From Klebsormidium nitens (taxonomy: Eukaryota; Plantae; Klebsormidiophyceae), in contig DF237363.1 in the NCBI GenBank assembly GCA_000708835.1, forward strand, positions 18,631 to 82,630: 64,000 nt of DNA. The letters are read 5' to 3'. A program made the position numbers and the translations under genes. Numbering within the stretch: position 1 is the first letter of the stretch; every line of letters starts with the position of its first letter. The notes under the pieces were generated by a model. The model ran no database searches and was not told the origin of the DNA. It worked only from the letters and a program-made list of their open reading frames with translations. Positions 1 to 20,533 of the stretch are shown piece after piece.

Positions 1-3000
1 AAGGACGTCGTGCTCTACCAGGAGGCGCCTCCGGGGCCTATCAACGGTCCCCGTGTCGTCTGCTGCATCAACTCTATCCACCGCGTGCAATTCAAGATGG
101 ACGTCGTGGGGATGGACGAGATGGACATGGTGCTCACGAACCTCAACTCCGAGGTCATGACCCAACGGGGCAGGGTGCTGTCCTGCCTCGAGGCGTTCGT
201 GGCGGGCGCGAAGGTTGTCATTGGCATGGACGCCAACATCGATTGCGCGCGGGTCATGGAATACCTCTTCATGGCACGCCCGGATGCGGCTCTCCACACC
301 ATTCGAAATAGAGGCTTGTATCCAGCGGCGAGGCGTGCGACCATCCGGGTCTTCTCGCAAGCGAGCGAGTCGCTCGAATGTATCGGCACCGCCGTGCAGG
401 ATGTGTTGGACCGTGTCGCCCGAGGCACGAAAGTTGTTGTGAGTTGTCTCTGAGTTTTTTGGGAACTAATCAGCCGCTCTCGCTGTTAACAGCGGAACGA
501 GCTGGCCTATGATCTCGAAAGGGCATATCTTCGTGCTGCTCCCAAGTTTGTTGCACGAGGTTGAGTAGGCATTCAAGCTGCTTGGAGTGTGGTCACGCTG
601 AAATGGGCTTGTGGGTCTGTACTTGGGGCTGTGGTCAGACTGATTTGCGGCTGCAATCAGCCTTGATTTTCACCATTGTGGTAGGCCTGGGTTTGGAGGC
701 TGGGTTTCGAGCTGCAATCAGGCTATTCGGGGATGCATATGCGATCGATTGGGCCCACGAACAGGCTCTTTCCAGGCTGCTGTTGAAGAGTTGTGGGCCC
801 AACTTCTTTGAGCTGCCTCCAAAGGCTGTGGTCAAGACCATTCTCAGATTGCGGCCGGACTATTGGGGTCCGCTTATTCGGGGCTTGGTTTGCGATGAGT
901 CTTTGTTAGACAAATGCACATCCCCTTTTTGTCCAAGCCAACAACTTGCTCCGCCCTCCTTATGCAGTGCCCTTCGACCTCCAAGCGCTTCGTGAAACAC
1001 CTTGAACATCATTTCAACGTCGAGTTCCCGCCCGCCGAGCCCCAAAAGCGCGGCATCTTTCTTCATGCCGACAAGAGGTCGAAGGCCGATGAGGACTTCT
1101 TCCAGAAGGCAATGGCCGAGCCAGACACCTTCTTGGAGGCGGACTGCGTGGCCTTCTCTCCAAAACTCGGCCCCGGCGTTTCAAAAGAGAAGCCGTACGC
1201 CGAGGAGACGGTCGCTTTCGCTCTTAACAGCCTCAACGGGCCTGATGTTGAGACGCTTCTCCAGCAGCACGCTCGCTTCCGGACGGTCACCAACTCCACC
1301 ATCGACTACAAGCAGGTGGTCTCGTCAGCAGTGGATCTGCCGCGCTCTACCGAGGCGGTCTTCCAGGCGATCGAGCGGGACGACAGACAGATTGTCAAGA
1401 TGCTCGGCGACGCCTCAGGCTTCCATTTCCTGAGGGGCTCGCGTGGCATCTGTGACCGATCCTCAGCGAGCTGCGTCTTGTACGCAAACAACATCCTCGC
1501 AAAGGTGGAAAGCTATCTGGAGTTCGTGCCGAAGCTGAAGGCCGACCTAGAGAAGCAGGGCTACGAGGTGACGGTTGAGCACATCGAACCAAGGGTGAGA
1601 TTGCCGAACGTTCGAAGCAGCTTCAGCTTCCTTGTGTTGCAAACTCATTCGGTTTTGAAGTGCTTAGTCGAGATCAAGAGGTTGAGTCGATTCGCACTAG
1701 GGCGACTGTATAGAACCGGAGATGCAATTGACAGCCTCTGTCCAAGGGCTTTCTGGGCACCGGAACGACAAGAGGAAAGGGGTCGAGTCAATTTGCACTG
1801 GCGTCAAGAATTGACTAGGCTGCTTCAGTTCATTGGAAAAAAGCTTGCAAGGCAGGGGCCACCGGATAATCAAAGCTTCCAGAAGGTGACTGGACGTTTC
1901 AGACATGTTATTTTGTTATGTGATCCATTGTCATATACCTTTCAGAGATCAAGATTTCAAGACAAGTTATGGCTCGATTTGAGAGTAAGGAGACATGCAT
2001 ACCAATCCTTTGAGGCTATATCGCGTTTGCGTCTGCAAGAGAATCAAACTCTCACCCTTTTACTTTCCAGGGCAACCTTGGGCGTCCACCTCCAGAGGTG
2101 CCTCTCGGCTTTGATCCGGACCCAGAGCTTCTGAATGACGAAGACTGGCGCGCCAGATACATCATCAACGTGGACCAGTACGAGCGTTTGTGCGAGAGGC
2201 CGGAGGAGTTGAGTCAGAGGGAGCAGCTCCAGGAGTATCTGCTCGAGATGGTTACAAATGAGTACAAGGTCGACCCTAGGCGGGTTGATCACAGCTTCTA
2301 CCTTCGCTCCTGCGCTGATACGGACGAAGCAGAGAAGACGAAAGAGGCTCACGCAAACTACCTTAGGTGAGCTTCTCAAGCGGCCGCGCGTTGCCGCTCG
2401 AGCAAATGTCAAAACTCTTCTGCACCCTTCACTTCGGCTAAATGTGGACGTTTGGGTTTGAAGAGTGTAGCACATGTCTGAAGCCAGAGCGTCTTTCTGT
2501 GCCCTCACTGCAATGAGTCGAATCTTTCTATTTGCTGCCCCCTAACGATGATTGCGCTATGCAGATTTCGTGAGCACCGCTTCGCCACCCTCGCCGGCGA
2601 TCTGGACAGAGCGCTGGGCCAAGTCAACGAGTTCGGCGTGGTCCAGGAGTACGTCAAGGTCGTCCGCGACCCCCTCAACCGCGTGCCGTTTGCGGCCCGC
2701 ATCCTTGCCTTCCTAGTCGGTTGCGAAGAGGAGCAGCTAGACCATGGAGCGGAGCTGTGGGAGGTCTCGGAGGAAAGCGTGCAGGCCGCCTATGCGAGGT
2801 TCATCGGATTCAGCAAAGAGCAGCTGAAGACCATCTTCAACCTGTACGGCTTTGTGCAGCAGATCTCCAGGCGCTCCTCAAAAACGGCCGAAACAGGGAA
2901 CAATGAGAGAAAGGCTCAAAAGCGTAATGCAGTGGGGAAAGTTCTTAGAGCGGGCCTCGGAGTTGAGCTCCAGCTGGCAAAAAAGAGCAACAACAAATTC

Positions 3001-3108
3001 ATCTCTCCCCACCTCTTGACGCCTGCAATCTATAGGGGCTTGCATGAGCGATACGGTTCATACGATCCAGGAGTAGGGGCTGCAGAGGAGTGCATAATTA
3101 GGTTGTAA
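1..3108 (+). CDS. Origin-of-replication-binding protein (herpes UL9-like / NCLDV OBP SF2 helicase), spliced, 5' part outside window
   Basis: Exons ..438, 968-1594, 2071-2366, 2565-3108 join in frame through GT-AG introns (gtgagt/tatgcag; gtgaga/tttccag; gtgagc/cctaac..tatgcag). Motifs: CCINSIHRV, MDEMDMVL (motif II), MDANID (motif III), GTKVV|CPSTSK (IV), FSPKLGPGVS..DVETLLQQHARFR (V/VI). Family assignment from recalled motif similarity, no search run. Confidence 0.72.
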
Positions 3109-3308
3109 AGGTGGTGATTTTTGGAGAGAAGCTGCATAGATCCAGACACTTTCATTATGTATTTTAGGAGTGTACATATGATTCAATTGTCAGTCTCTTG
3201 TAGACCTTGGTAGTGTCTGGATTACGCACCGGTTGCTTTTTTTTCCATCTAACCGCGTTGCTTGCCGTGTCCGCAAATAGTTCTTTGCCTCTTTAAAGCA
3301 TGCCCTCT

Positions 3309-5640
3309 TTGTGGCATGTTGTAATCGCTTGCACGAGTCAATATGCACGGGCTTTCAAGCTTTAATGTATAGTCAATGGGTGCAATTTGACTGCCGACCA
3401 TGCCCCCGAGTCACTCGTTCTGGCATGTTGTAGTGAAAAGCTCACGTGAGTCAATATGCACGCTTTTGGAGGTTTGATGTATAGTCGATTGGTGCAACTT
3501 GACTGCTGACCATACCCGAGACTTTTTGGCATGTAGGAATCGAGTAGAATTGCGCGGGCTTTGAAGCGAGTCTACTATATAGTCGATGGGTGCAAATTGA
3601 CTGCCGACCATGCCCGAGACTGTCTGGCATATTCTGGCAACGTAGTGGATAGCTCACGCGAGTCAATATGCACGCTTTTGGATGACTGATGTATAGTCAA
3701 TTGGTGCAAATTGACTGCCGACCATGCCTGGGACCTTTCCTGGCACGTTGTAGTTAACAGCAGAAACAAGTTAAAATGCATGGGCTTTCAAGCTCTGATG
3801 CATAGTCAATTGGTGCAAATTGACGGGCAACCATGTCCGGGACCTTTCCTGGCACGTTGTAGTTGATAGCAGAAGCGAGTAGAAATGCACGGGTTTTGAA
3901 GCTCTGATGTATAGTCAAAGGGTGCAAATTGCCTGACGACCATGGCCGAGACTTTCTGGCATGTTGTAGTAGATATAGCTCACGCAAGTCAATATGCACG
4001 CTTTTAGAGGTCTGATGTATAGTCAATGGATGCAGATTGACTGACGACCATGGCCGAGACTTTCTGGCATGTTGTAGTAGATATAGCTCACGCAAGTCAA
4101 TATGCACGCTTTCAGAGGTCTGATGTATAGTCAATTGGTGCATATTGATTGCCGACCATACCCGAGACTGTCTGGGCATGTTGTAGTTGATAGTCTATGC
4201 GGGTCAATACATGCACGCTTTGGAGGCCNNNNNNNNNNNNNNNNNNNNNNNNNNNNNNNNNNNNNNNNNNNNNNNNNNNNNNNNNNNNNNNNNNNNNNNN
4301 NNNNNNNNNNNNNNNNNNNNNNNNNNNNNNNNNNNNNNNNNNNNNNNNNNNNNNNNNNNNNNNNNNNNNNNNNNNNNNNNNNNNNNNNNNNNNNNNNNNN
4401 NNNNNNNNNNNNNNNNNNNNNNNNNNNNNNNNNNNNNNNNNNNNNNNNNNNNNNNNNNNNNNNNNNNNNNNNNNNNNNNNNNNNNNNNNNNNNNNNNNNN
4501 NNNNNNNNNNNNNNNNNNNNNNNNNNNNNNNNNNNNNNNNNNNNNNNNNNNNNNNNNNNNNNNNNNNNNNNNNNNNNNNNNNNNNNNNNNNNNNNNNNNN
4601 NNNNNNNNNNNNNNNNNNNNNNNNNNNNNNNNNNNNNNNNNNNNNNNNNNNNNNNNNNNNNNNNNNNNNNNNNNNNNNNNNNNNNNNNNNNNNNNNNNNN
4701 NNNNNNNNNNNNNNNNNNNNNNNNNNNNNNNNNNNNNNNNNNNNNNNNNNNNNNNNNNNNNNNNNNNNNNNNNNNNNNNNNNNNNTAAACGTGCACGGGC
4801 TTTGAAGCTTTAATGTATAGTCAATGGGTGCAGATTGACTGACGACCATGGCCGAGACTTTCTGGCATGTTGTAGTAGATATAACTCATGCAAGTCAATA
4901 TGCACGCTTTCAAGGGTCTGGTGTATAGTCAATTGGTGCAAATAGACTGCCGACCATACCTGAGACTTTCTGAACATGTTGTAGTTGATAGATCATGCGA
5001 GTCAATACATGCACGCTTTGGAGGTCGATTTGATGTATAGTCAATTAGTGCAAATAGACCGCCGACCATGCCCGAGATTTTGAAGCGTTGTACTTGATAG
5101 CAGGGACGAGTGAAAATGCACGTGGCTTGATCTAATGTATAGTCGATTGGTGCAAATTGACTGCCAACCATGCCCGAGACTTTCTGGCACGTTGTATATA
5201 CTAGCAAAGACGAGTAAACGTGCACGGACTTTGAAGCTTTAATGTATAGTCAATGGGTGCAAATTGACTGTCAACCATGCCCAAGACTTTTTGGCATGTT
5301 CAATGTAGTGGATAGCTCATGCGAGCCAATATGCATGCTTTTGGAGGTCTGATGTATAGCCCACTGGTGCAAATTGACTGCCGACCATGCCCGAGATTTG
5401 TTGGCACGTTGGAGTTAATAGCAGAGACGAGTCAAAATGCACGGGCTTCAAAGCTTAGATGTATGGTCAATGGGTGCAGATTGACTGCTGACCATGCCAA
5501 AGACTTTCCAACTGGGCACGTTGTGATTGATAGCAGACATGATGGCAAAACGCACGGACTTCGAAACTATAATGTATAGTCAATGGGTGCAGATTGGCTG
5601 TCGACCATTGCCATAACGGAGACTTTCTGGCGCGTTGTGA
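3309..5640. repeat. Tandem satellite, ~108-112 bp unit, at least 16 visible copies, two subtypes
   Basis: Recurring core ATGTATAGTCAATTGGTGCAAATTGACTGCCGACCATGCCCGAGACTTTCTGGCATGTTGTAG about every 110 bp: 8 copies before and 8 after the N gap. Confidence 0.95.
4229..4785. other. Assembly gap (N run) inside the satellite
   Basis: Continuous Ns; the ORF-track entries spanning it are artefacts. Confidence 0.99.
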
Positions 5641-5719
5641 TTGATAGCAAAAAATTGGCATTTCGTCTAAGCAATCAGCAAATTTTTGCTCGGACATAAT
5701 AAGTTGGTTGAATTTGCGA

Positions 5720-6232
5720 ATGGACACAATCATCCGTTATCCACCAAAAGACCGAGTTGCCATTAATGACATGGACGAAAAGGTCTACAAGTCAGTGAGG
5801 TCTGCTATCACGCGGTGCTATATTGAGTTTGGTTGTATGCACACTTACCTTGATATCGGATCCTTGGCCGGCTTGCGAGCCTTGACTCACCCCTATAACC
5901 TCTCCCATATCACCCGGAAAGTTGTGAGATCCTTAATTGCAGAAGGATTTCACGCTTTTTGGGACAAGTCTCACCTACACAGCAGCTCAACGTACACAAT
6001 CTTTGTCGATTGGAGACGTGCATTGAAGTACGCCCAGAATGGGGAAAAGGCGGCCCGCCACCGGTCTCAAAACGTATGCGTAGATAACTCTGAGCGGAGA
6101 AGGGGCCTTTCAAGCCGTCTTGAGAACGTGGCAGCCGGCAGAAGCACCGATGACTCGGAGACAGAGAATGTCGAAGTGCCCTTCTTGGAAATGCTCGCGA
6201 ATCCATCGAAGCGGCCGTCTTCACCGGAATAA
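5720..6232 (+). CDS. Hypothetical intronless protein of the virus-like cassette (~170 aa)
   Basis: ATG at 5720 (MDTIIRYPPKDRV...), open to 6232, protein-like composition; no family recognised. Confidence 0.5.
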   Translation: MDTIIRYPPKDRVAINDMDEKVYKSVRSAITRCYIEFGCMHTYLDIGSLAGLRALTHPYNLSHITRKVVRSLIAEGFHAFWDKSHLHSSSTYTIFVDWRRALKYAQNGEKAARHRSQNVCVDNSERRRGLSSRLENVAAGRSTDDSETENVEVPFLEMLANPSKRPSSPE

Positions 6233-6523
6233 CTAGAGAATGTGCACTTTTAAAGAAATGGATGGCCGTGATAGGCTTGATAAAGAAAAGATGTACAGCC
6301 ATATTCACGTTTTCTAGCTTAGTCACATTTGCCTGCAAATGTGATGTTTGATAACTTTTTGAACATGGGTGCTACAACCTTTTCTGGACTGGAAAACATG
6401 CAAGAGCATTCAAGGAACTCAGAAAGTGCAGAAAATTCCGAACAGCCATATTCACTTATCTGAGGGCCTGATCTCGTTTGGTGGTCAGATATATTTTCCA
6501 AGATTATGTGAGATAAAGAGGTC

Positions 6524-7582
6524 ATGGATCGAAAAGGGAACGAACGTTCTGTAACCGTTCCAAGGACGCTCGAGTTGCTTGAAGCGGTTTTTGACGACGG
6601 CTCTAGAAAAGCAATAACGGTGAAGCAGTACGTAGCACATGTTAGCCGTCTCTACAAGGGAATGTTTGGCCCAGAGGCGGAAATCTCTAATTTTGATTGG
6701 CTTAGAGATGCAACAAAAGTGATTAATTACTTTGCCAACACGTATCCAGACAAGCTATCGATGCAAGCAACGGGCCTGACCCCGCTCCTCATTGTTGTGA
6801 AGAAGGAGTTTCCAAAAGACAACGAGCTATATCAAGCGCTCTATAGAAGGTACCAAGAGGTTCGAGAACTGATGGACAAAGCACGTCCTCCGCCTCAAGT
6901 GATGACCGAATCCGAGTTCCGAAATTGGAAGACAGTCTCGCAGATCAATGAGCGTCGCGTGGAGCTGCAGAGGAAGGTTAACCGCAACATTTTAACCAAG
7001 TCTCCCGGACAATTAACAACGGGAGACAAGGTAATCTTGATTCGCTATTTGGTGCTTTGTTTGTACAGTCAGAGCCCCACGTTGCGAAATGATTACTCCA
7101 ACCTGCCAATCATACGTTTTGAGGAAATGCACGCGCCTTCGGCAAAAGCCCTGATGAGCGGGGGCGGCAACTATCTTCTGGAGCATTCAAAGGGCCAATA
7201 TAGGATCGTCTTGAAAGAATACAAGACTTCAAAAGCCTACGGAGAGCAGAAGATCGACCTCCCATTGCGCACATGCAATGTGATTGCGGAGAGTCTACAG
7301 ATCTTTCCCAGAAAGTACCTTCTGAGCCGGATGCGCACACCGGATGAACCAATGAGCCGCAATTACCTTACAAAGTTCTGCTCCCAAATTTTTGAAGATG
7401 CGAGGGTGGGCACATGTCTTCTCAGGAAAATCTGCGTCTCGACTGCAATGAAAGATGCACCCAGCATTGTTGATCGGGAGGAGCTTGCAAAGAAGATGCT
7501 CCACTCGAGCACCATGCAGATGTACACCTATGAGAAAAAGTACAATCCAGACGGGTCGAGGATCCAATTTGCTGATGCTTAA
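6524..7582 (+). CDS. Tyrosine recombinase/integrase (Polinton-like virus / virophage / NCLDV type)
   Basis: Intact 352-aa ORF with catalytic residues in order: PTLRNDY (R), EYKTSKAYG (K), TCLLRK (H-x-x-R position), MLHS (H/W), YTYEK (Y). Confidence 0.82.
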   Translation: MDRKGNERSVTVPRTLELLEAVFDDGSRKAITVKQYVAHVSRLYKGMFGPEAEISNFDWLRDATKVINYFANTYPDKLSMQATGLTPLLIVVKKEFPKDNELYQALYRRYQEVRELMDKARPPPQVMTESEFRNWKTVSQINERRVELQRKVNRNILTKSPGQLTTGDKVILIRYLVLCLYSQSPTLRNDYSNLPIIRFEEMHAPSAKALMSGGGNYLLEHSKGQYRIVLKEYKTSKAYGEQKIDLPLRTCNVIAESLQIFPRKYLLSRMRTPDEPMSRNYLTKFCSQIFEDARVGTCLLRKICVSTAMKDAPSIVDREELAKKMLHSSTMQMYTYEKKYNPDGSRIQFADA

Positions 7583-7633
7583 GCCTCGATGTACCTTTCG
7601 CAAGTTGAGCATAGTTGCGGCGTATGAGGAGAT

Positions 7634-7969
7634 TCAGCAGGCCTCACCGACCATATACGACGAGATCTCTCCCGAAACGTGATCATCGGCAACGGATGGC
7701 AAGATTGCGGCTGGCGGTATTAAATATCCTGCCTTTTTCAGCCTCTCGAGAGTCTGATTGTGAAACTTCTTGGTATGGCCTGCAATATAACGCGCATACG
7801 CTCTTTGCATCAGAATCCTTTCTTGATTGCGGCCATAATAGGCCCTCACGTGCGCTTTGTGCCTCTCTGGATGCATTTGCTGGTGACGTCTATGGTTTGT
7901 GCAAGCGCGGCATGGACATGGTCGGGTGTAGTCCTCAAAGCTACCAGCATCTTCAAAGGCCATGGACAT
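7634..7969 (-). CDS. Small hypothetical protein (~111 aa) divergent from the primase gene
   Basis: MSMAFEDAGSF... with CPCRAC and an RAYYGRNQERI basic helix reminiscent of small viral DNA-binding proteins; starts ~100 bp from the primase ATG. Confidence 0.5.
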   Translation of the reverse strand: MSMAFEDAGSFEDYTRPCPCRACTNHRRHQQMHPERHKAHVRAYYGRNQERILMQRAYARYIAGHTKKFHNQTLERLKKAGYLIPPAAILPSVADDHVSGEISSYMVGEAC

Positions 7970-8070
7970 TGTCCCTATGTTATTGCTAGGAAAAAAAGCT
8001 CGCCGTTCAACCGCAGAAAACAACAAGGTGCGTTCGGATCCATTGGTTTTTTTCTGATGATCATGACAGA

Positions 8071-10837
8071 ATGGCTGCACCAGGCCACCAGCACGCTATT
8101 GTCGATCCCAAGGCCTCGATCAAAAGTATTAGAGATGAGATCCAACGGCTTTGCGACAGAGGGCTATATGCAATTCCCGTACACCTCAGCTGGGATGCAA
8201 AGCAGGCCAGGAAGATTGCAGTGTTTCCCCCTACATACAAACATATCACGACCCCAGAGCTGTGGGGGGATTCTATCAATGACGCACTGAAGCAGATAAG
8301 GCAAGACGCCAATGCGATAGGAATCCTCTGTGGCCCCAGTGGTATCTTTGCAATCGATGTAGATGTGGCCAGTACAAAACAAAAACGAGCGGGAATGGAG
8401 CTCTGGCGCAAGCTTGTCGAGAAGCACGGTGATCCTCAGACTCTCAAAGCAAAGACGGGCTCGGGTGGACTTCATCTGTATTTTAGGGCAGACTCGCCGG
8501 GTCTAACGCAAACCAAAAATTTTGCAACAATCTTGGTGGATAGCATCGTATATGCACTGGATGGCCGAGGTGTTGGAGGTTGCGTCTTTGTTCCACCTTC
8601 AAGCTACATTGATGGCCAGGGCAGGCTTGCAGAATATGAGTGGATCAATGGGCCCCCAAGCTATGAAGCCTGTCAAAACATGCCCGAGTGGTTGGTGCAA
8701 TTGACAAATAATCATGATAGTGACAACCCAGTGACGGACGTGGAGGACAAAATACAGGTGAATTGGGGTTTAGAAGACAGCGCATTAAACTGCAAACAAA
8801 GTGTTTCGTCGATTAAGACCACACCAATTCAAGCAAGACCGTCCCCAGACCTGCGCAACGCAGTTGCATTGCCGAGATTAAAGCATACAATCCAGGAGAT
8901 TGAGAGGCTCTTGCGTGATCAAATGCCAAATGATATGAGCATCTTCAACGGTGTGGGAGAAAAAACTTCAAATGGGTGGCAGATTCTCAAGTTTAAAACC
9001 AACGGTGTGCGCACTTGCTTGAATGGCCACCAACACGTCTCAAATCAGTTCAGCATTCTGAGCAACGGGGGCATACTCGTATATCGTTGTTTGAGTGCCG
9101 AATGCATTGACAAGCCCAAGCGATTGTTGAGCATCTATTTTTGGCCTGAGTGCCTTCCTCTTAGAGCCGAAGGGGGGCTCTTTATAGCTTGCGAACGCTA
9201 CGTGCTCTCTTTTGAGCCATCCACAGGCAATGGCAACGAAATAGAAAACAAAAAAAAAGATGGCACTGAACGGTCAAAGAAAGCCAAATTGGATCTGCAA
9301 GATCTTGTATTGCGCATCATGAACCACTAATTTGCCGTCGTCCGCTCAACAAAGGCTGTCTATCTCGAGACAATCTACTCAAAGGATGCCAACGGTTGGC
9401 TTCAGCCTGAGGAGACCATTGACCGGTCCGGCCGCGACTTCCTAGAGGTATGCAGGAACTTCCAGCTCCAAAGCCTGCCGGGAAAGAGCAAGGAGATTGC
9501 CAAATTTTGGGAGAGCAGCTCTAAACGGCGGGAGTATGATCAGATTGTGTTTGAACCGGACACATCAAAGGTGTCTTTGCGGCAATTCAACATGTTCTGC
9601 GGATTAAACTTCCAACCAGTCGACCGCAAACTTTCAACACCGGAGCTTCTACAATGCAAGGAACGGATGCCGAAGCTCTTATGGCACATCCGCCACATTT
9701 TATGTGATGGCTCGGATGAGCGGTTTGACTACAATATTCGGTGGATTGCGCATTGCGTTCAGAGGCCTTGGAGAAAGATTCAAGTGGCCCTTGTCTTTCG
9801 CGGACCCCAAGGGTGCGGCAAGTCAATATTGTTTGACTTCCTTGGAACCATGATCATTGGCATAAAAAACTACTTGTATTGCAATGAGATTGAAAAGATC
9901 ATTGGCAAGTTTAATTCTTTGGGTGCCAACAAGCTTCTCATTGTCTTTGACGAGGCGGGAAACTGGGGAGGAGCGTACAGAATGAATGATCGGATGAAGT
10001 CTCTAATAACGCAAGAAACGACGTGCTTGGAGCGAAAAGGAAGAGACCCGATCACCGTGCAAGATAAGAGCAATATCGTGTTCACGACAAATAATGCATG
10101 GCCGGTGAAACGAGAGGCTGATGATCGACGGTACTCTTGCCAAGAATGCTCCGGTACCAAGGTGGGAGACAAACGGTACTTTGATGAGCTTTTGGAAGAG
10201 TTGCGGAATCCAGACATTGCTTTCAATTTCCACCAATACCTATCGTCTCTTGACCTCTCTAAGTGGGATCCTCGAAGAATTCCACTTACGGCGTGGGGAG
10301 AGGGTCTCAAGGATCACTCAATTCCATCACATGTGATGATGATGCAAGCGCTGCTTGAGAATGGATGCTTTCATCCTTCTTTGGAGACGTGGGTAGCATC
10401 AAACGACATTAAGCGGACGTATGATAAAGTTTTGCTGCAGATGGACATCAAAGAAGATCGCCAAACGAACCTAAACTTACGTCTTGGTGAGCTCTCTAAG
10501 CGCCATTTTCAAGATGCGGCCGCAAGCGCGCAGCATTCAACATATACGAACGCACAAGGGCTGGTACTTCCCTCCACAAGACGCCATATGCGAGGCACTT
10601 CATGTTGGAAAGTTGCGAAGTACAACCGTGGAGTGGCTCGGCATATGGGAGCGGGTTGAGTACATCGAGGACGAGCAAGGGCCATGGATTGCGGAAAGAA
10701 GGGATGACAATAAAGAGGTGCAATTGTCTGAAAAGGACCGCGTGTGCACGCATTGCTCAGACAGTCATGTGTGTGAGGGATGGAAGGAGCTCCGAGATGA
10801 GAAATTGTTGCGTTTCAAAACCCAATGGGTGTCATAG
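8071..10837 (+). pseudogene. Bifunctional primase-polymerase (Prim-Pol) + Zn finger + D5-like SF3 helicase, disrupted
   Basis: Prim-Pol motifs AIDVD, KTGSGGLHLYF, DGRGVGGCVFVPPS; Zn finger CLNGHQHVSN..YRCLSAEC; Walker A GPQGCGKS, Walker B IVFDEA, motif C FTTNN. An in-frame TAA at 9328-9330 is followed by an open frame into the 9547 ORF; a frameshift near 10485 moves the C-terminus (KGWYFPP) into the 10484-10837 frame. Confidence 0.88.
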
Positions 10838-10870
10838 AGGTTCCACATGGCTTGTTACCTTTTCATTACC

Positions 10871-10893
10871 CACACACACACACACATACACAC
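10871..10893. repeat. (CA)n microsatellite
   Basis: cacacacacacacacatacacac. Confidence 0.85.
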
Positions 10894-11123
10894 ATGACTA
10901 TACCCATGAACAAACCCGCAAGACACATAGTCTATTACCCTATTACCGTATTACCTATGGTATCTTGCAATACCACTTTCTTGCGAGAGCACCACATGAC
11001 AAAAAAACATATGAAACATGTAAGATTTGAATGAGTGGGTAATAAGGTAACGCGTAATACAGAGTTTTTATCTGGGGCCAACTCCCCTTTGAGTGGGAAC
11101 CAAAAGCACGGCGAATGTTTCAA

Positions 11124-14100
11124 TTATTGTTGCAACAATCGAGTTCGCACCCCAGCCGTCCACACGGCTGCTGCTATTGCAATTGCAAGCTTGGAATCGT
11201 CGACCCTCTTGAGCGTCTGGTTGTAGCCGCCGAGGAGCAGAGGCAATATGACCATGAAACTTTCGAGCCCCGAGTACCAACCTAGACTCCTGAACCCCTT
11301 CAGAAAGGAGTTCACCGACTCCACTGCACTAGTGTTCACCCAGTGAAGGAACGGGTAGGTGTCCGGGCAATTCGAGGGACCACACTTGTGTACCTCCTGG
11401 CCAGCCTTTGAGAAGTGAAATCTGTAAAACATGAAGATATACATCAATCCTGAGATGAGAATCGATGTACAACATTTCAAATTAACATTCACAGCTTTGG
11501 AGCCGCTCTGTCCAACTCCAGAATGAATCCCAATGTACACGCAACGGCAGATGACCACAACTCCACTCAATGTTATGCAACAAAGCCCACGGCTAGAGGC
11601 AGCTCTTTACACAGATTGTCCAGCCATGCAATTATGTGAAAGCACGCACCTGTCGACGACGAATCGAACCTTGGCAAAATGCGCCCCTTCCCGCCGCATG
11701 CAGTAGTTGCGCAAGGCACAACCATTGTCGTGAACCACGACCTCTGGCAAGTCCTCCCGCCTCAGCCGAGTGTAGAGCACAACAAACGCGTCCCTTGGGC
11801 TCTCTCCGCGTAGCATCACGTGGAAGCCATAGATGCACCTGTGGGGGCACGCGAACACATAGCCCCCCCTGCTCCTCTTTGGCCGCTTACTGGCACTTCC
11901 CTTCTTCCCCGAGAGCTTTCCGGCCCCTTTCACCAATCCGGGAACATTCTCAACGTCCCACTCCGTCATCGACTTCCCCGTTGCGCACTTGTTCTCCTCC
12001 GAGCTTCTACTGCGGCCGCCCGGATGCTCGAAGCTGCTATACCAGGGCAATCCCCGTTTCTGCTCCCATCCGGGAAACGAGTAGCACGCCAGGGCGTCCT
12101 GTTCGGCTCGGAAGGCATGCCCCGTTGGCAGCGGGTGAAGCTCTTCCCCGTTCTCATCTTGCCCCAGCCTCTCTCTCAGAAGCGAGCGCTCATGAGCGCT
12201 CATGTCCTCCCATTGCTGGGGGCTTGGCTCCAACCTTTCGACCCCTGGCAGCAATTTGTTTGCCAGCCCGCGCGCCTCGTCCAACTGCCGTCGCTCCTCG
12301 ATGCTAAGGGGACGTGCTCGAGCCTTCGTAAGAAGGTTGACAGCTCGGTTAAAGGGGTCGAGCGCCTCGTGCACCCAGCCGCGCCGCCCATCGGCATCGA
12401 AACCCGTTGCACCCCTTAAAAAGACGGTGATGAGGTAGAGATGGTAGAGGGTGCGCGTGGAGAAGGCCGGAAACGTGAGGCCGCCGTACGCGTCTAGGAT
12501 GCGTCGCAAGATGGGCGCGTCCCTTGCCAAGTCTCGCCTGTCCTCGAGAGTTGCCTCGCTCCCCAGCAAAAGCCTCCGGATCACGTGCAATGCGCCAGGT
12601 CCGATCAGATCCTCGTCGCTGTCATGCGCGCCCAGGCAATAGAGGATTTCCGTCCACTCTCCAACCCAGTGCTGCCACAGGTCTGGGCTCAACCCTCGCC
12701 TCTCAAAGTCACCCTGGATCCCCGTCAGCAACTTGAAGACGGCCAGGTTCCGGTCTCGCACCATCGTGCGCTGCTCAGTAAGCATGCGCCGTCTGCCGTC
12801 CTCGGGAAGCGACCTCTCCGCCTCATCCGGCCCGAAACGCTTCACGGTCTGGGGGTCCTCGTGAGCCAGCCCGTTCAGGAGCGCATTGAACTCCGTCTTT
12901 GACAACCTCTCCCCGAGCTTTCCGTCCCGCGGCCTGTGTTGAGAGAGGCGTGCAAGCGCTTCTCGCAACTCGGGTAGCAGCAAGAGCTTGCGCTTCAAGC
13001 CGCCTCCTCGGAGACTTGCCCCGCAGTAGTCGCGACCGGAGATGGGCCGCTTCTCAAGGAGCTCCCCCGCAGAGGTGCGGCTAGGATGGCAAAACGTCCT
13101 TCACGCGTCAAGCAAAGAGCTCCCAAGACCCCCCGGCTTCTGCGCGCCGTCCGCGCTGGCTAAGCCCACTATGCCGTCGCAGATGAGCACCTTGAAGAGG
13201 AGTGAGTAAACGAGTATGAGTCAACGGGTATGTAGAGCGGATATTGGATCAAAAGTGCATGACACATGATCGACCACTCAATTAGGAGATTGAAATCTCA
13301 ATGAATGTCGATTGAATATTGTTGAATCTACACGCATTGATGTCATTGGGTGTGCACTCACTATCAGCAAATGTACACTGATTGTGAAAGAATGTACACT
13401 CATCATCGTCAGACATCGACATCGCTACGGTCACAAAATTGGACAGACAGCAAAGACAGGACAGACAGAAGAATCTTGTGACCGCCAGCCATGTGGCTCA
13501 CATTTGGATGTGGTCCACAGAGCGAGCAGCAATCCCGAAGCCCCAGCCCAACCAGCTTGAAGAAGTCGAGGCTCGCCCGACGCCACGTCTCCTCGCTCAG
13601 AACCGCCGCGGTTGGGGTGTACTCGAACGCGGCCTGATCGCGCGCGAGCACGGCTCTGAAAGATTGGCCGCTTTGCATGCCTCGCAGGAGGAGCTGAAGG
13701 CTTTGTTGATGAAAAAGCGTACGTTTTGACCAGACGTAGAGCCCGAAATGCTCCCCGTCAAAGTGGACGGCATGGGCCCGGTCCAGGCACGAACAATGGT
13801 ACAGCCGTACTCGCACCTTCTTGCTCCACGCCGACGCCTCAACGGTGGCCTCTACCCAGGCCTCCACCCATTGAGTTCCGCAAGGGGGTGCTTCAATTGG
13901 GCAAGGGGCGCTCAGGAGGCCGCGTCGGGAGAGCTCGGCAAAGTGGCAGTCTCTGAGCTCGCTCAGGGGCACGGGGGATTGGAGGCACGTGACCAGAGGG
14001 TCGTGGACAGTTGAGGCGTCGCTGGGCCTTGCCAACTTTGGTTTGGAAACCTGAATGGCTTCCGTAGTCAGCAGCATCACAGGACATTGGGCCCGTTCGT

Positions 14101-15259
14101 GAACCGCGTGCGCGCAAGCGCCTTCGGCCTTTAGCGAGCTCAGCGTACAGCTCGAGCAGGCCGCAACCCAGCCGTGGATGGCCTCCTTCCCGCGAGCGTC
14201 TAACGGCGGCACCGTCCCCTCAGGTTCCGCCGGTCGGCCCTGCCCTAAGATGGGCGCACGTGCTTGCTTCTCCCAGAAACTCTTGCCCCTTCTCCTCCGC
14301 TTGCCTGCAGGCGGCTCATGAGCACCCCCTTCTTCCTCTCGTCCCATGACTCGGGTTTCGTGACCCTCCGTCTCCATTGGGCGTGCCTCGCCGAACAAGG
14401 CCGCGTGCCGTTTGCAAAAGCACCCCTCTCCTGCACACGCCGCCCCTTCGTGTGGCCGCCTCTGAAGCAGCCCCAACAAGTATTGCTGCTCACCTGTGAG
14501 CTCCCCTCCTTCTCGAGGCACGAGGCTTTCCTGCGAGGCAACCTCTGCCGGTACCGCCTTTCCACCCCCGATTTGCGGCAACTCCCCTTCGATCCATTTC
14601 TCTAACCAAGCAATTGCTGCCTTGGCAAATGGGGCCAATCCAAACGCCAGCCTCGCGCAGTCCGGCACATCCCCTTTTGCAAGAGCAGCCCGCGCCGTGC
14701 TTATGTGGACGCACTCTGTTAGCGATGGGCAACCGTCCCTCTTCCCTTCGCAGTACCAATTTCCGGCAACACTGTGAAAGAGCATGCGCCGCTTGGGGCA
14801 CGAGGGGCTTCTGGGGTTGTCGACCACCGCATAGTACGACCCCTTGCCGTCCCATGAGACCCGCTCGACGCTCACTCCCTGCCCAAGGGCCTCACTGGTC
14901 GGCAGCTCTCCGTTTGGAGCCCAGCTCTCGCTCAACGCCGCTAGAACCAGCTTGTGAACACACGGAGCGCTCTCCGTTAACCTTCCTCGATGACACGTGC
15001 AGCAGAGCACCCCAAGAGCGTTCCACCTCGCCATCTCCTGCAGCGCGTGGCTCTTGTCCGGCTTTCCCAGGGGTTTTGGCCGGCCAACTCCGTTATGGTC
15101 CCAAGCGCCCATGTACATCGACAGCAACGGTGCTCGAATGCTTCCGACTGGCAGGAAGATCTGGCAGTCCTTCCCCTCATCCACTCTCCTCAGGTAGCTC
15201 AACGCTTGAGCTTTTATGCTAGTTGCGGGTGCGCGCTCCTCTCCATTTGTTTCCTGCAT
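11124..15259 (-). mobile_element. KDZ (Kyakuja-Dileera-Zisupton)-type transposase with N-terminal SWIM and CxC zinc fingers, spliced, with one in-frame stop
   Basis: Exons join as ..CSLCGPHPN|VLICDG (first catalytic Asp) and ..VVD R|FHFSKAGQEVHKC..NTSAVESVNSFL (intron 11649-11422). Also GGYVFACPH..GESPRD and HDNGCAL; SWIM-like CxC..CxH motifs (CCTC..CVH, WYC..CVH, CSSC..CAH); CxC domain PCPIEAPPC..YHCSC..FDG. In-frame TGA at 13103-13101. Confidence 0.8.
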
Positions 15260-16203
15260 GGGCCCAGAAGGTCGACAAATGATGCATATGCTCCATTGGG
15301 CAGCTCAAACGTAATGTTTCCAAATCGATCAAAATCACGCGTCTTGAAGAGGTCCTTAAGCTTGTGACCCCCCAAAATACAATCAGGTTTTCTATCGATA
15401 ACTCTCAGGAGCACGTCAAAATTTCTGTCAGGCCTCTTCCTATTGATATTCCGAATGCACTGGCAAGTGTAACAATTCTCATGGAATTTGCAAAGCTCGG
15501 AGCTCCCTTTCAATCTGGCTTGCTGGGCCGCAGCTGTCATTTTGTCCTGATGCTACTAATGAAAGAAAAGAAGTTTGATGTCATTTGTCCTCACCGGCGC
15601 TTCAGGCTCGCGCACTCTTGGTTGCAATCCCTTGGCGCCACCTTTGTTGATAACCTGCTCAGCAGCCGTGAGCTGACGCTTTTTACGCTCTACGGTGCCC
15701 TCGTTCTGGCCTCTGAGAAACGAGATCAACGCGTCATCTAGCGCCAATACCTGCGTCCAGTAGCCAGCGGGATGCTGCTGTAGAATTGATGTGTTGGCAC
15801 CATCATCCAGCCGCTCGCTTAACGCAATGGTCCTGCCGTCGGCTGCTTCCACAACCTTGCCAAGTAGCTTCCCTATGCAGCTGAGGCAAACAAGAGACCT
15901 GGCCTGCTTTGCTCGGGGCACCTTTGCGCTGATGAGATAGCCTCTCTGCACTCCATTGGATTGCTGTCCTTTCCGAAACGCCAGCCGCAAGCAGCCCTCT
16001 TCGTCCTTAACCCATAGCTGTTGTCTACATGTCAGGCACTTGACCGCAACGCGCTCTTGGCAGCTGGGGGAGTCAACCCTAAAGTGACCTGAAGCTATAT
16101 GGTCGAATGTAGGTTTGTCTAACCTTATTCGTTCACCACTGCTAACCAAATCCACCTCTACTACAGCCATTTCCAACCCCCACTGCCTCAGATGGGATGC
16201 CAA
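15214..16203 (-). CDS. Cys-rich accessory ORF (or frameshifted 5' part) of the KDZ element
   Basis: ORF 16203-15556 can splice (YWTQ|gtattg ... catcag|DKMTAA) to ORF 15540-15214; CxxC pairs (CLTC, CLSC, CYTCQC). Its stop lies 45 nt past the transposase ATG. Confidence 0.45.
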
Positions 16204-19200
16204 AGGGCGGCGGCCTCTCCCTAAGTGCCTCTCTCTCCTCGGTCCGAACTTCCCGGGGCCTCGGTCCTACCCTTTCAGCTTGGTCTCTTACCTCTAAGCC
16301 CCTCAACCGACCACTACCGTGACATGCCTCAAGGGGCCCCGGTCGCTTGTCCCTAAGTTCCGACCGATTCGATGCGCGGGTGATCGAACCTGTCCAGAAT
16401 ACTGCTGGGGGTGTGCTGACGTGGCGTCCTCTCCAGGTCATGTCACCAAACTTACCGTCACGGCAGAACCCGGCAGCATCGGTAACCGTCCCGTCACCGT
16501 CCGATTCTTCTGGAACGATCGTCACCGTCGAGAGAATGCCAAACACCCCTTGGTAGGCCCAGTGTGCTTCGCAAAGACTGAAGGATACCCAAAGTTGACG
16601 GCCCAGCCACGTGGGAGTGCGCGCGCGACACGTCGGCCGAAGTAGTTAATATTACTAGTGTCACGCGGCAGCTCAGTAACCATGCCAGATAGCATAAGCC
16701 GCAAGCATAAACGATGCAGATTCGCCAGACTACGGACAAGTTCCGACCAGCTACAGATTACGTCATACTCGGTTTCTGTTTGTTGTTTGCTAATAGCTGG
16801 CAGGATTCAGAGTAGCCACGCTTGACACGGGCTTAGAATCATTGGCATAAGCAAGGTCACGGTCACGTTACAAACAACCTTGCTGCAAGCTGCCTAGCTA
16901 GCTGCAGTCCGTAGGTAGAAGCAGTCATATAAAGTTCAGCCCATGATAGACTAGATAAGAGTGCATCTCAGACTTAATTGAGGCCTGCGCGCCTTCAGAA
17001 ACTGCTAGTATAAAAGGCCAGAACTTGGAACATTCCATTTTAATTCCTACTTCCAGCAATCCACGTTTGCCTAGGGCTAGGAATTCCCACTCAAGACGTT
17101 TCCTTACTACGATCAAACAAGCAGCTTTCAGCTCTCGTTGTCCTTTCACAGTCATCTTGCAGCATTCTTTGTCATAGCAAGGCAGTGGCCAGAGTGCATG
17201 ACTTATATGAGCCCGACGGCGGGCGTTTGCATATGCAAATGACAAAGTGTGAATTGAAACGAAGCACTGAGCGTGCTCTTTGCAATTGAGATTGCAATGC
17301 TGATTTGAAACGAGTGGTACACCTATGGTGGTCACTGAACAATCACAGAGCTGATTGTTATACCATCAAAACTTGGGTCCAGCGCGGCACAGCGCCGCGC
17401 TTGGACAAGCCCTCTGCTTTTCAGCAGATTTGAACCAACTGTGAGTTTATCAGTCGTGGCCATTGCATATGACCTGACTGCCACCAATCCGACAGAAACG
17501 TGAACCCTTGATGTGATTCATGGGCGTTGTCTGAAAGCGTGAGCTAGAAATAGCAAGGAGGAAAGGAGCAGCTTCAGGGCTGCACCTCCAAACTTGACTC
17601 TTCCTTCACTGGAACATTAGCAGACCTATTGTTCCAACCCGACTGGTATGGGACAGTCCGGGGATAGTGACTGAACGAGTATGCATGATTGATTTGCCAG
17701 AGCTTCCGCAATCTGATCTAAGTTGCAGCTGCACGCCGACCAGCGCGGCCGCAGCGCGCTGCCCGGTTTCACAAAAGTTGAAGACTGAGCAACTAACTGA
17801 GCATACGCGCATAGAGTTTATCGACGGTCCAAAGGCCGGGACACGTCACCCGGCAGGATTAGCGGACCCGTCCTCTCTGGTGAAGCACACCAGGCACTGA
17901 TTAGGTAACCATTTATTATACCTAAACGCCCCTAAAAGTGTGCATGACTACGTTGATCATAGCCTATGGGACGTCGCCTGAAGCGGCACAGCACTGAGAT
18001 TTCCGGTCGAGTTTTGTCGGGTTTGTACAGGATAATCGCTGAACAAACCCGCCTGCGCGCGCCGCGCAGTGGAGCGGTGTTCAATGCTTTTCTGACCGTC
18101 CAATTTGTAAAATCCGCTGTAGACGGCCAGCTTCCGCCACATTCGGCAAGCCAGGAGGCTATATGAGCCGCCGTTGATGTGGACACCAGCCATCCGTATA
18201 ATCGGACGGACCGAAACAAGCCGTTGTGGCTTGATACGCTCTAGGTACCTGGAATCTCGGCGCACCGTGCACCAGGACAACCACACTCGAGTTCAAATCC
18301 CCGGTTCACGGATGATGGATTCCAGATCGACGTGAACCGGGAGCTCCCGTGCTATTTGCAGGAAAACCCTTCGGGGATACCTCTAGCTTTCCTCAACGAA
18401 AGTAGGACTACAGAATATGGCAGGAGAACATCTAGCAAAAGACCAGCGGGGAAATATTTGCTTCCAGCGGTACCCGGTTCAATTGACGCCAGCTCCAGCT
18501 GACTCAGCCGATCGAATCAGGAGCCGCCGAGTACAAATTCGGATCAGGAAGAATCTCCGCAGTTCATGTGGCTTGTGCCTTCGACCCGGGGCAGGGCGAG
18601 ACTACCACGCTATAGTGACTTTTATCCATAGCATGACACTTTCTTATTGTCTACGCGTCAAGACCACAATTGTGTCAAGCACGTGGCTGATACTGGGAAC
18701 GAAAAGTGCAACGCCTTGCCCGGGATCGTCCGACGTGGCTTTCTTGGCGGAACCTTTTCCGTGCAAGGTTCTTCACGCAGGCGAACTCCCCTCAATGCCA
18801 TCGTTCAGCTCCTTCAGCTCCTTCAGCTCCTTCAGCTTCTTGCTACAGAGCGACGGTTTACGGAGCCCTTGTTTTTCTCTTGCCTCCACGCCTCCTGGGT
18901 GTCACCTACAGATTCCCAATTCCCTGCATGTTACGCAGAGCCCTTCTCGCAAATCAAGCGGAGCTGTCCAGCTGTTTACAATGGTGGACGCGGCAATGAT
19001 CGCCCTCCTGTGGACGCAGCGTGGCCAGAACAAGCAAAAGTTGTAAGGGGCGACAATCTGATACTGAGCTATTCTCCACAGCTTGGCAAGCCCTGCAGAC
19101 GCGAGGAAGTTGAGCAAGTCGCTGTCAAATGAAAGACCGAATTTTCAATATAGATAATTCCTGCGGTCCTCCGAGTTTGTTTGACATTCTGGTTGTACAA

Positions 19201-19492
19201 AATGTCGCCAGATCATGGCAACGGCAATGGGTATTCGGCCTCAGGGTATACAGAGCTGGTTCACATCGCCTGCAATGGCCACAAGCACGATAGAACCTCT
19301 GGAGAAGGGACCTGAGAGCACAACCGATTGTCTCCTTTGTACAGTACAGTAACTAACAGGGACTTCCTGATAACAGTTACATAGACGGGCAATCCTCAAG
19401 TACGAACTGTTTGAGCGGGACAGTTTTGTCAAAGAGAGTCCCAACCGCAAAGAATCGAGTTTGTACAAATAGAAGACATTGTACTCATTAAC

Positions 19493-20533
19493 ATGGGTCA
19501 CAGGCTGCTGTATATCTTTTTGGTAGCGATAGTGCTGGCCACTGCAATTCCGGCCAGGGCAGTGGAGGGGAGAGTGGATGGGCGGCTCTGTCCTTTTGAA
19601 TTGGGCTTTGCCCCGTGCAACAATGCGAGCCGCCTCGTGTGCTGCCTGGGTAAGCTATTTTCACTGTGGATTCAAAGTTGTTTTTGAAGCCGCTTTCTTT
19701 TCTGCGACGTTGACCTGCTCAAGGGGACGACTCTTTCTTGTTAACTGGCTTGTTTGTTTACTATGTGACCAAAAGGAGCTCTCCCTTATGTTTCTGTCCT
19801 GGTTAGGTGCATCTAATAACCCTTTTGGCAGATTGAGCATGTCCAGTCTCTGGCATTTTGTGTTAGCATGTCGCCTCCTGATTGTGCGTTGAACCCTGTC
19901 GTAGATTGCCATGGGTGTTTATTGGTCATTGATCTCTCAGCTTTTGGACCAAGTGCGTAATGTTGTCGTATTGCATCACAAGCAGTTCTAGGAGTTGAAC
20001 TTGTTGTGCAAGCAATCCTAGTATCATGGGAAGGGAGTTACAGGCGGCCACGTTGAATCTGGAATTGCCCTTGTGCAGGATCATGCGGTTCCCAGAACTG
20101 CTTTGAGGTTGACCAGCCTGACGCCATGAAAGCAAAGTCGCTGCGCAACACGGGTGTCACCATCTTCAATCTCATAAAAGCCTTCAGCCAAGGCGACTGG
20201 GAGGCGGTAACCTCGCTGATGGCCGAAGGAGCCACGAGTAGCGGGCCAGGGTTTGAGGGGGGCTTGTCAGCTAAGAGCCCCCGAGCGCTGCAGTTGCAGC
20301 AGGCAGCGTTCACATATCAACCTGGCCAAGACTTGAGCTCGTCATTTCAAGTGCTGCAGTATGACCTTCTGGGGGGCAGCCCCCTCAAGAGCAGAGTGGT
20401 CGCGAGGCATCACACCAAGGCTTTTCAGTTTGAGGTGGATGGAACGTTTGAGTTAACCGATGTGGAGCCCGGGAAGAGGAAGTGGTTGATCAGGGAAGCT
20501 CATTTGAAGAACTTCCGGCCTTCCGGTTTTTGA
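19493..20533 (+). CDS. Secreted protein: signal peptide + six-Cys mini-domain + SnoaL/NTF2-like domain (~203 aa)
   Basis: Exons 19493-19649 and 20079-20533 join in phase 1 (ctg g|gtaagc ... gtgcag|ga tca). Hydrophobic N-terminus MGHRLLYIFLVAIVLATAIPARA; C-x8-C-x7-CC-x3-C-x4-C; IKAFSQGDWEAVTSLMAEGA resembles the SnoaL-like first helix. Confidence 0.65.

Follow-up and report, generated by a model that had tools for sequence, protein, structure and literature searches.

A spliced, multi-copy gene of the Klebsormidium nitens genome predicted to encode a viral-type primase-helicase

At the start of a 64,000-nucleotide stretch of the Klebsormidium nitens genome (contig DF237363.1; hereafter the window) lies the end of a gene that looks viral in its protein and eukaryotic in its introns, which raises the question of what it encodes, where it came from and whether it now belongs to its host or to an element. 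The sequence-only reading had described a viral-type UL9/OBP-like SF2 helicase interrupted by three spliceosomal introns, and had proposed either an old viral acquisition, since domesticated and distinct in age from an intronless cassette 3 kb away, or the replication gene of an intron-bearing giant transposon.

The window contains only the 3′ third of the gene; the Walker A motif and the primase lie upstream of base 1, and everything before that base is known from database gene models, of which P0012 is the window's own 1945-aa protein. The features of the gene within the window are as follows.

1..438, plus strand: coding exon, truncated at window base 1; latter half of RecA1, including Walker B (DEMD) and motif III; P0012 residues 1312-1457
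439..967, plus strand: intron 1, phase 0, 529 nt; site common to the whole divergent clade
968..1594, plus strand: coding exon; RecA2, carrying motifs V and VI (QQHARFR), followed by the helical region; P0012 residues 1458-1666
1595..2070, plus strand: intron 2, phase 0, 476 nt; found only in the near (at least 73% identical) subfamily
2071..2366, plus strand: coding exon; linker, then the start of the helical C-terminal domain
2367..2564, plus strand: intron 3, phase 2, 198 nt, with two in-frame stops; site common to divergent relatives
2565..3108, plus strand: last coding exon; C-terminal domain, with TAA at 3106-3108
3109..3244, plus strand: 3′ untranslated region, its limit being the reach of one contig (2947-3244, one other letter)

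Joining the four exons gave 1905 nt, that is, 634 codons and a single, terminal stop, and the 634-aa product was identical, letter for letter, to residues 1312-1945 of P0012; an open frame without internal stops that reproduces the end of the database protein confirmed that the three introns are real. All three are of the GT-AG type, with GTGAG at the 5′ end and CAG preceded by a pyrimidine tract at the 3′ end. GC3 was 0.74, and exon GC was 56-61% compared to 46-52% in the introns. As the earlier reading had it, the run GTKVVCPSTSK is cut by intron 1 exactly between GTKVV and CPSTSK; we take this run to be motif IV, in agreement with its place in the structural model, where it forms the strand that opens the second RecA lobe.

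Splicing was assessed in assembled contigs from 8 of 24 listed public runs (six named studies and one other), seven of which are only guessed to be RNA and one of which is of unknown kind. At the three proposed junctions (438/968, 1594/2071 and 2366/2565), contigs of these presumed RNA runs skipped intron 1 in seven of eight runs and introns 2 and 3 in all eight; the first set of runs contributed 4/4 for every intron, and the second set 3/4 for intron 1 and 4/4 for introns 2 and 3. The joints of exact copies had a shorter side of 21-30 letters, below the tool's 31-letter bar, and those of diverged paralogs at intron 2 had 104-107 letters. In run X1, exon pieces without other letters reached depths of 206-327, against 3.5-9.8 for intron-covering pieces, so the window copy or an identical one is mostly spliced. 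Retention of intron 2 as the main product was rejected, as frame 0 is open through the intron but shifted after it (ORF 899-2134).

The domain order of P0012 is a variable N-terminus, an AEP, a zinc finger, an SF2 helicase and a helical C-terminal domain, and the AEP is fused to the helicase in seven K. nitens models. A pattern search of the P0012 model found the AEP motifs DLD, SVH and WD intact and the zinc-finger pattern present too, and in the helicase the runs GVGKS (Walker A) and QQHARFR; DEMD (Walker B) and MDA were read from the sequence, and we take GVGKS, DEMD, MDA and QQHARFR to be motifs I, II, III and VI, respectively. Exon 1 of the window matched PF02399 (E 6e-9, 35 bits, cut-off 20). 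This was the sole Pfam family at E<=0.05 in six of the seven K. nitens proteins (54.2 bits for P0012), and the C-terminal fragment among the seven matched no Pfam family at E<=0.05. Cellular SF2 families (DEAD, RecQ, Ski2) gave no match for P0012 at E<=0.05; the profile search for an ordinary eukaryotic SF2 family left it with PF02399 only. Among PDB sequences, only HSV OBP (E 2e-4) and human PrimPol (E 2e-3) matched.

Structural modelling was carried out on the paralog P0006 (91% identical, pLDDT 79.8). The model matched HSV OBP with Z 24.8 (rmsd 11.1, 491 aligned) and human PrimPol with Z 21.9 (rmsd 3.2, 229 aligned, residues 39-286); DEAD-box proteins scored Z 17-20, at most 19.7 and below OBP's 24.8. 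The best named viral fold matches were proteins of Dasosvirus, Bodo saltans virus, Marseillevirus, Catovirus and Pyramimonas orientalis virus, at 13-17% identity. When the C-terminal 441 aa were modelled separately, to look for the dimerisation and SAP origin-binding domain of UL9/OBP, HSV OBP was the sole chain of 48,161 with Z>=5, and this match was weak (Z 6.8, rmsd 13.5, 272 aligned). Residues 60-340 of P0012 had no useful look-alike in the Atlas (best 0.76). The notion of a viral-type OBP-like helicase with spliceosomal introns was thereby supported by the PF02399 match, HSV OBP as the best PDB match, the viral folds and the spliced contigs, and the suspected fused primase upstream was found as the AEP of P0012 and the PrimPol fold of the P0006 model.

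The label UL9/OBP-like held as far as a related SF2 helicase is concerned; the precise family is the AEP-fused R8/pF1055L type rather than plain OBP. Plain herpes OBP, or UL9 proper, was rejected on the fused AEP and on motif II, which is DEMD instead of DEVM/DEIM, and "origin-binding" is only a family name for the K. nitens protein. Judged by its sequence, the gene is an AEP-SF2 primase-helicase of the R8/pF1055L type, and sequence and model together predict a whole protein composed of a PrimPol-like primase, a zinc finger and a UL9-like SF2 helicase, as in mimivirus R8 and ASFV pF1055L.

According to excerpts of a recent preprint (bioRxiv 10.1101/2024.02.29.582850), an intact AEP is fused to a UL9-related SF2 helicase in mimivirus R8, ASFV pF1055L, OsHV-1 and the mriyavirus SF2_hel, and UL9 of mammalian herpesviruses is without AEP. 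The K. nitens protein shares with the former an AEP N-terminal to the SF2 helicase and a core of ~1100 aa, and its best named viral folds are of such kind; R8 and pF1055L are likened to it by architecture and related viral folds. In contrast to the R8/pF1055L type, the K. nitens gene is chromosomal, has at least four spliceosomal introns and belongs to a multigene family, and its protein is extended at the N-terminus by a long stretch of low complexity that includes zinc-finger-like, 2A-like and basic motifs. Herpesvirus UL9/OBP (PF02399) is the best solved-structure match in both sequence and fold, reaching into the C-terminal half, but its motif II reads DEVM/DEIM (excerpts of PMC13483431) where the K. 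nitens protein has DEMD, and mammalian UL9 is a stand-alone helicase whereas that of K. nitens is AEP-fused. Human PrimPol shares the AEP fold, over the alignment given above, followed by a Cys/His zinc motif, but at 20% identity, and the K. nitens gene groups with the viral fusions. To our knowledge, PrimPol has no helicase.

The copy number, raised as a point by the earlier reading, proved to be high: at least 11 loci are present in K. nitens (KFL_001560170, KFL_001380250, KFL_002280190, KFL_011930020, KFL_010460010 and KFL_003010140/145; further KFL_009210030, KFL_001380210, KFL_002040040 and KFL_005100080, plus the window's own locus). Eight loci were 66-91% identical in pairwise BLAST, in a comparison covering seven near-group proteins, and every named close relative of the gene is from Klebsormidium. 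The 90% cluster of KFL_002040040 includes a K. subtile transcript and two JGI proteins, and that of KFL_001380210 includes JGI, ENA, Logan and NCBI proteins. Contigs of diverged paralogs, from the same runs, lie on the exons at 80% likeness and skip the same intron places, and one paralog contig has a related intron 2. Several models are broken (KFL_009210030 is without the helicase, KFL_003010140/145 is split and two are "partial"), and three copies sit on scaffolds of 11-25 kb.

Beyond K. nitens, a scan of 1.84 billion representatives yielded 353 matches at E<=0.001. Apart from those that are Klebsormidium-like, these are mostly proteins of 1000-1200 aa at 23-33% identity; environmental proteins of this length show the AEP-ZnF-helicase order, as do viral contigs. 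Relatives were found on seven viral contigs at 18-25% identity, of which two adjoin RNA polymerase subunits, one adjoins virophage capsid genes and one, the locus of five that the capsid search covered, belongs to a 548-kb record on which two NCLDV capsid genes were found. The top look-alike cluster in the Atlas is 61% eukaryotic, with Mucoromycota the commonest, so eukaryote-borne relatives are not unique to K. nitens. Scans of viral contigs with P0006, P0034, the SF3 ORF, the clade motif and the repeat core retrieved no related loci; metagenome contigs gave 300 pattern matches, none confirmed, in one scan and 0 in a second, and prokaryote genomes gave 118, none confirmed. A virophage-type contig (L006:3373-12236, with Sputnik major and minor capsid families) was seen to encode an OBP-like helicase with PriCT-2. 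The gene family is not described in the open-licence literature searched, and excerpts of PMC4889955, PMC12846837, PMC13405545 and PMC10120064 contain nothing on it.

The age of the introns was read from environmental relatives: gene callers applied to metagenomes break a gene with introns into ORFs the size of its exons, and we counted the edges of 182 aligned matches, 15 rows of which belong to one 90% cluster. At the site of intron 1, 12 matches end and 17 start; at that of intron 3, 18 end and 3 start, although four of these 18 ends are distant full-length proteins and likely due to chance; and at an upstream site, P0012 residue 1217, seven end. The edge matches are mostly exon-sized metagenome ORFs, 31-47% identical, with the letters VS, Q or R-stop, as expected of a GTGAG donor (VS or R-stop) and a CAG acceptor (Q). 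Introns 1 and 3 are at the same codons in relatives just 31-47% identical, and, because intron sites are common to relatives this distant, three introns probably predate the diversification of the family. At the site of intron 2, the informative edges belong to rows 73-84% identical, whereas four independent fragments or clusters at 31-37% continue across it without a break in colinearity. The simplest reading of intron 2 is a later gain, loss in the others being a possible alternative, and the introns would so have come in stages.

The K. nitens copies and these relatives formed one clade in a maximum-likelihood tree of 217-232 helicase columns (SH 0.96 with 133 rows; 100/98 for a 21-row clade with 56 rows chosen from the 133). 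The clade splits into five old subfamilies, three of which occur in K. nitens, and its sister is P0023, an unbroken 1090-aa ORF on a 3.9-kb contig. The 56-row tree, with its backbone open, picked out no particular donor virus. The proposal of an old acquisition, distinct from the intronless cassette, fits both the deep conservation of the intron sites and the tree.

Several copies are expressed in the presumed RNA contigs, and their differences are mostly synonymous. Thirty-six exonic variant letters fell in 31 codons, 20 of them synonymous and 11 not, giving a pN/pS of ~0.16 (437 synonymous and 1465 nonsynonymous sites, 1902 in total), a ratio that mixes paralog and strain differences and takes as its input 36 of the best-supported 40 of 88 variant rows, the four in the 3′ UTR being dropped. 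At window position 1304, just behind motif VI, the window copy has a nonsynonymous difference from paralog contigs, and the aligned close paralogs agree with each other there. NCLDV-derived regions share with the gene its host and a viral origin (excerpts of PMC5294986 and PMC12344493); they are viral core gene clusters, whereas the primase-helicase gene, which those excerpts do not mention, is intron-rich, expressed and repeated. Since viral-origin genes of K. nitens are methylation-enriched as a class (excerpts of PMC12344493), an expressed, intron-rich gene of viral type stands out.

Hundreds of residues before the AEP, the database models P0012, P0010, P0013 and P0175 carry the motif G[IV]ESNPG after a leucine-rich run.

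P0012 residues 227-334, upstream of window base 1: zinc-finger-like motif, then 2A/StopGo-like motif; in P0010, P0013 and P0175 as well

The residue that ends the motif is P in P0013 and P0175, which are intact, and W in P0012 (the window copy) and P0010. Two models have a CxxC..CxxH zinc-finger-like motif ahead of it, and five have a basic cluster after it. The intact 2A-like motif arose in 0 and 1 of 20,000 shuffles (~2e-5 per protein), and ExNPGP was present in 0 of 93 long environmental relatives. Two paralogs share the GGVESNPGP end with class A 2A (StopGo) peptides (excerpts of PMC12338488), whereas the window's own protein, with W for P, departs from the 2A consensus [D/G]xExNPG-P and its terminal proline. 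A GxExNPGP 2A was reported active in a picornavirus (excerpts of PMC6249498), and the table of predicted class A 2A peptides in PMC12338488 lists the GGVESNPGP end twice, untested, in another Klebsormidium protein; the peptides of the K. nitens paralogs had 0 matches in this table (supplementary file 3). From these motifs we infer that paralog proteins may undergo peptide-bond skipping and nuclear import. A 2A-like motif in a nuclear gene derived from a DNA virus is unusual.

Downstream of the gene, the window holds the following.

3336-5660, no strand: tandem repeat of ~108-bp units, interrupted by an N gap (4229-4785), with 16 unit cores identified
5720-10659: intronless cassette, with lower GC (47-49%)
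11607-15304, minus strand: ORFs with weak CxC4 (E 0.001) and KDZ (E 0.17) matches
34976-35614, 43819-45117, 48622-49086: host-type genes by Pfam, with ion transport, WD40 and PPR domains
35518-36012 (121 bp) and 50406-50807 (159 bp): further tandem repeats

The array begins 230 nt behind the stop of the gene, and each unit core has an 8-bp inverted repeat around a short spacer. A contig with two array units (joint 5443-5340) was present in 4/4 runs of the second set, at a depth in the range of paralog contigs, which places a related repeat in some presumed transcript; among the matches listed, no contig joined a paralog 3′ end to the repeat. The cassette comprises a 170-aa ORF, a 352-aa ORF that by its motifs we take to be tyrosine-recombinase-like, a 111-aa minus-strand ORF, and a Prim-Pol and DUF5906 SF3 helicase whose frame is broken by one stop at 9328-9330. 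The recombinase-like ORF, 3.4 kb from the gene, had no PDB match and no Pfam match of note. It has 30 relatives, 28 at 51-79% identity, among which the one named K. nitens gene, KFL_014070010, is on a scaffold without a known paralog, although annotation may omit such ORFs; two viral contigs, one of which also gave a weak capsid match, encode relatives at 28-30%. The search of recombinase relatives found no tie between cassette and helicase family. The cassette resembles a capsid-less Polinton-like remnant and looks separate from the primase-helicase gene; no contig covered 6004-10672 in the eight runs, from which neither silence nor absence follows. The 11607-15304 ORFs are, by their sequence matches, likely a KDZ-type transposase in pieces. 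Among the 25 longest inverted repeats in window 1-20000, no convincing terminal or long one was found, the left end of the gene lying outside the window. Capsid, PolB and packaging ATPase were absent from the 30 ORFs scanned, downstream of the gene, of the window's 70 ORFs of >=150 aa. A presumed transcript was observed at 18650-20100 in 4/4 runs of the second set, where loose ends at 19650 suggest an intron to ~20080.

How, then, is the gene best explained? It is very improbable that the gene encodes a regular eukaryotic SF2 helicase, alone or fused to a host PrimPol, and was mistaken for viral. Its N-terminal domain does fold like human PrimPol, and DEAD-box folds reach Z 17-20, but PF02399 is the sole match of P0012, the AEP-ZnF-helicase order recurs both on viral contigs, one bearing NCLDV capsid genes and another virophage capsid genes, and among environmental proteins 1000-1200 aa long, and the Pfam, PDB sequence and viral-fold matches largely refute a cellular identity. 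We also consider it unlikely that the copies are relics of giant endogenous viral elements without present function, whose introns were acquired passively and whose number reflects segmental duplication: NCLDV core genes do occur in viral regions of K. nitens (as K. flaccidum; excerpts of PMC5294986) and several copies are broken, but the intron sites are fixed across 31-47% identity, the motifs are intact, synonymous change is in excess, splicing is efficient, and no capsid, PolB or packaging ATPase family appeared in the 30 of 70 ORFs scanned.

A tentative possibility is an old DNA element, without capsid but with introns, for which this gene serves replication: the element would copy itself by its own primase-helicase, with the 108-bp array perhaps as origin and a recombinase acting in trans. 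Its multiplication to at least 11 loci (eight at 66-91% identity in pairwise BLAST), duplication at the DNA level with a related intron 2 in a paralog, the 2A-like motif as a feature of viruses and retrotransposons, the array that begins 230 nt past the stop and whose every unit holds an inverted repeat, and contigs with the same repeat in 4/4 runs of the second set at depths like those of paralog contigs are all consistent with such an element. Nevertheless, the 25 longest inverted repeats in 1-20000 include no convincing long one, the sole named K. nitens relative of the recombinase among the 30 (KFL_014070010) has no known paralog on its scaffold, 90% clusters of individual paralogs recur across assemblies, and no contig among the matches listed links a paralog 3′ end to the repeat. 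Rather doubtful, in our estimate, is an undescribed class of eukaryotic DNA element without a capsid, or a domesticated replicon, with a giant-virus primase-helicase at its core, fully intronised and 2A-recoded, that would prime and unwind its own locus from the 108-bp palindrome array and would still be multiplying in the Klebsormidium lineage near the land-plant root.

On balance, we lean towards an old viral capture that is now a domesticated host gene family, given that introns are old and shared, that individual paralogs persist across assemblies, and that copies are expressed and under constraint. An active mobile element could likewise show purifying selection, expression and introns, and the copy number, the broken models, the 11-25 kb scaffolds, the 2A-like motif and the neighbourhood of array, recombinase and KDZ-like ORFs are element-like.

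Under domestication, a single capture from a large DNA virus would have brought in a primase-helicase gene, which would since have been maintained as a host family. Three introns, after P0012 residues 1217, 1457 and 1765, would have entered before the split into five subfamilies, and intron 2 would have arrived later; the subfamily of the window copy would then have multiplied by DNA-level duplication, retaining its introns, with some copies decaying. The protein may enter the nucleus via the basic motif kept in five models. Its C-terminal domain would grip duplex DNA, the helicase would unwind it using ATP, and the PrimPol-like domain of the same chain would prime the strand thus exposed, allowing a single chain to restart synthesis at stalled or damaged forks. 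In copies with the intact 2A-like motif, the ribosome may release the N-terminal zinc-finger peptide separately. The primase and helicase activities and the fork-restart mechanism are predictions from sequence and the structural model.

Primase-helicases of the R8/pF1055L type are viral and biochemically little studied, and K. nitens offers a spliced, expressed and multi-copy cellular version. The gene would constitute a dated record of how a viral gene that once had no introns gained them in stages, and it provides a tractable case of either a viral replication enzyme that a streptophyte alga has domesticated or a self-copying element of a new kind.
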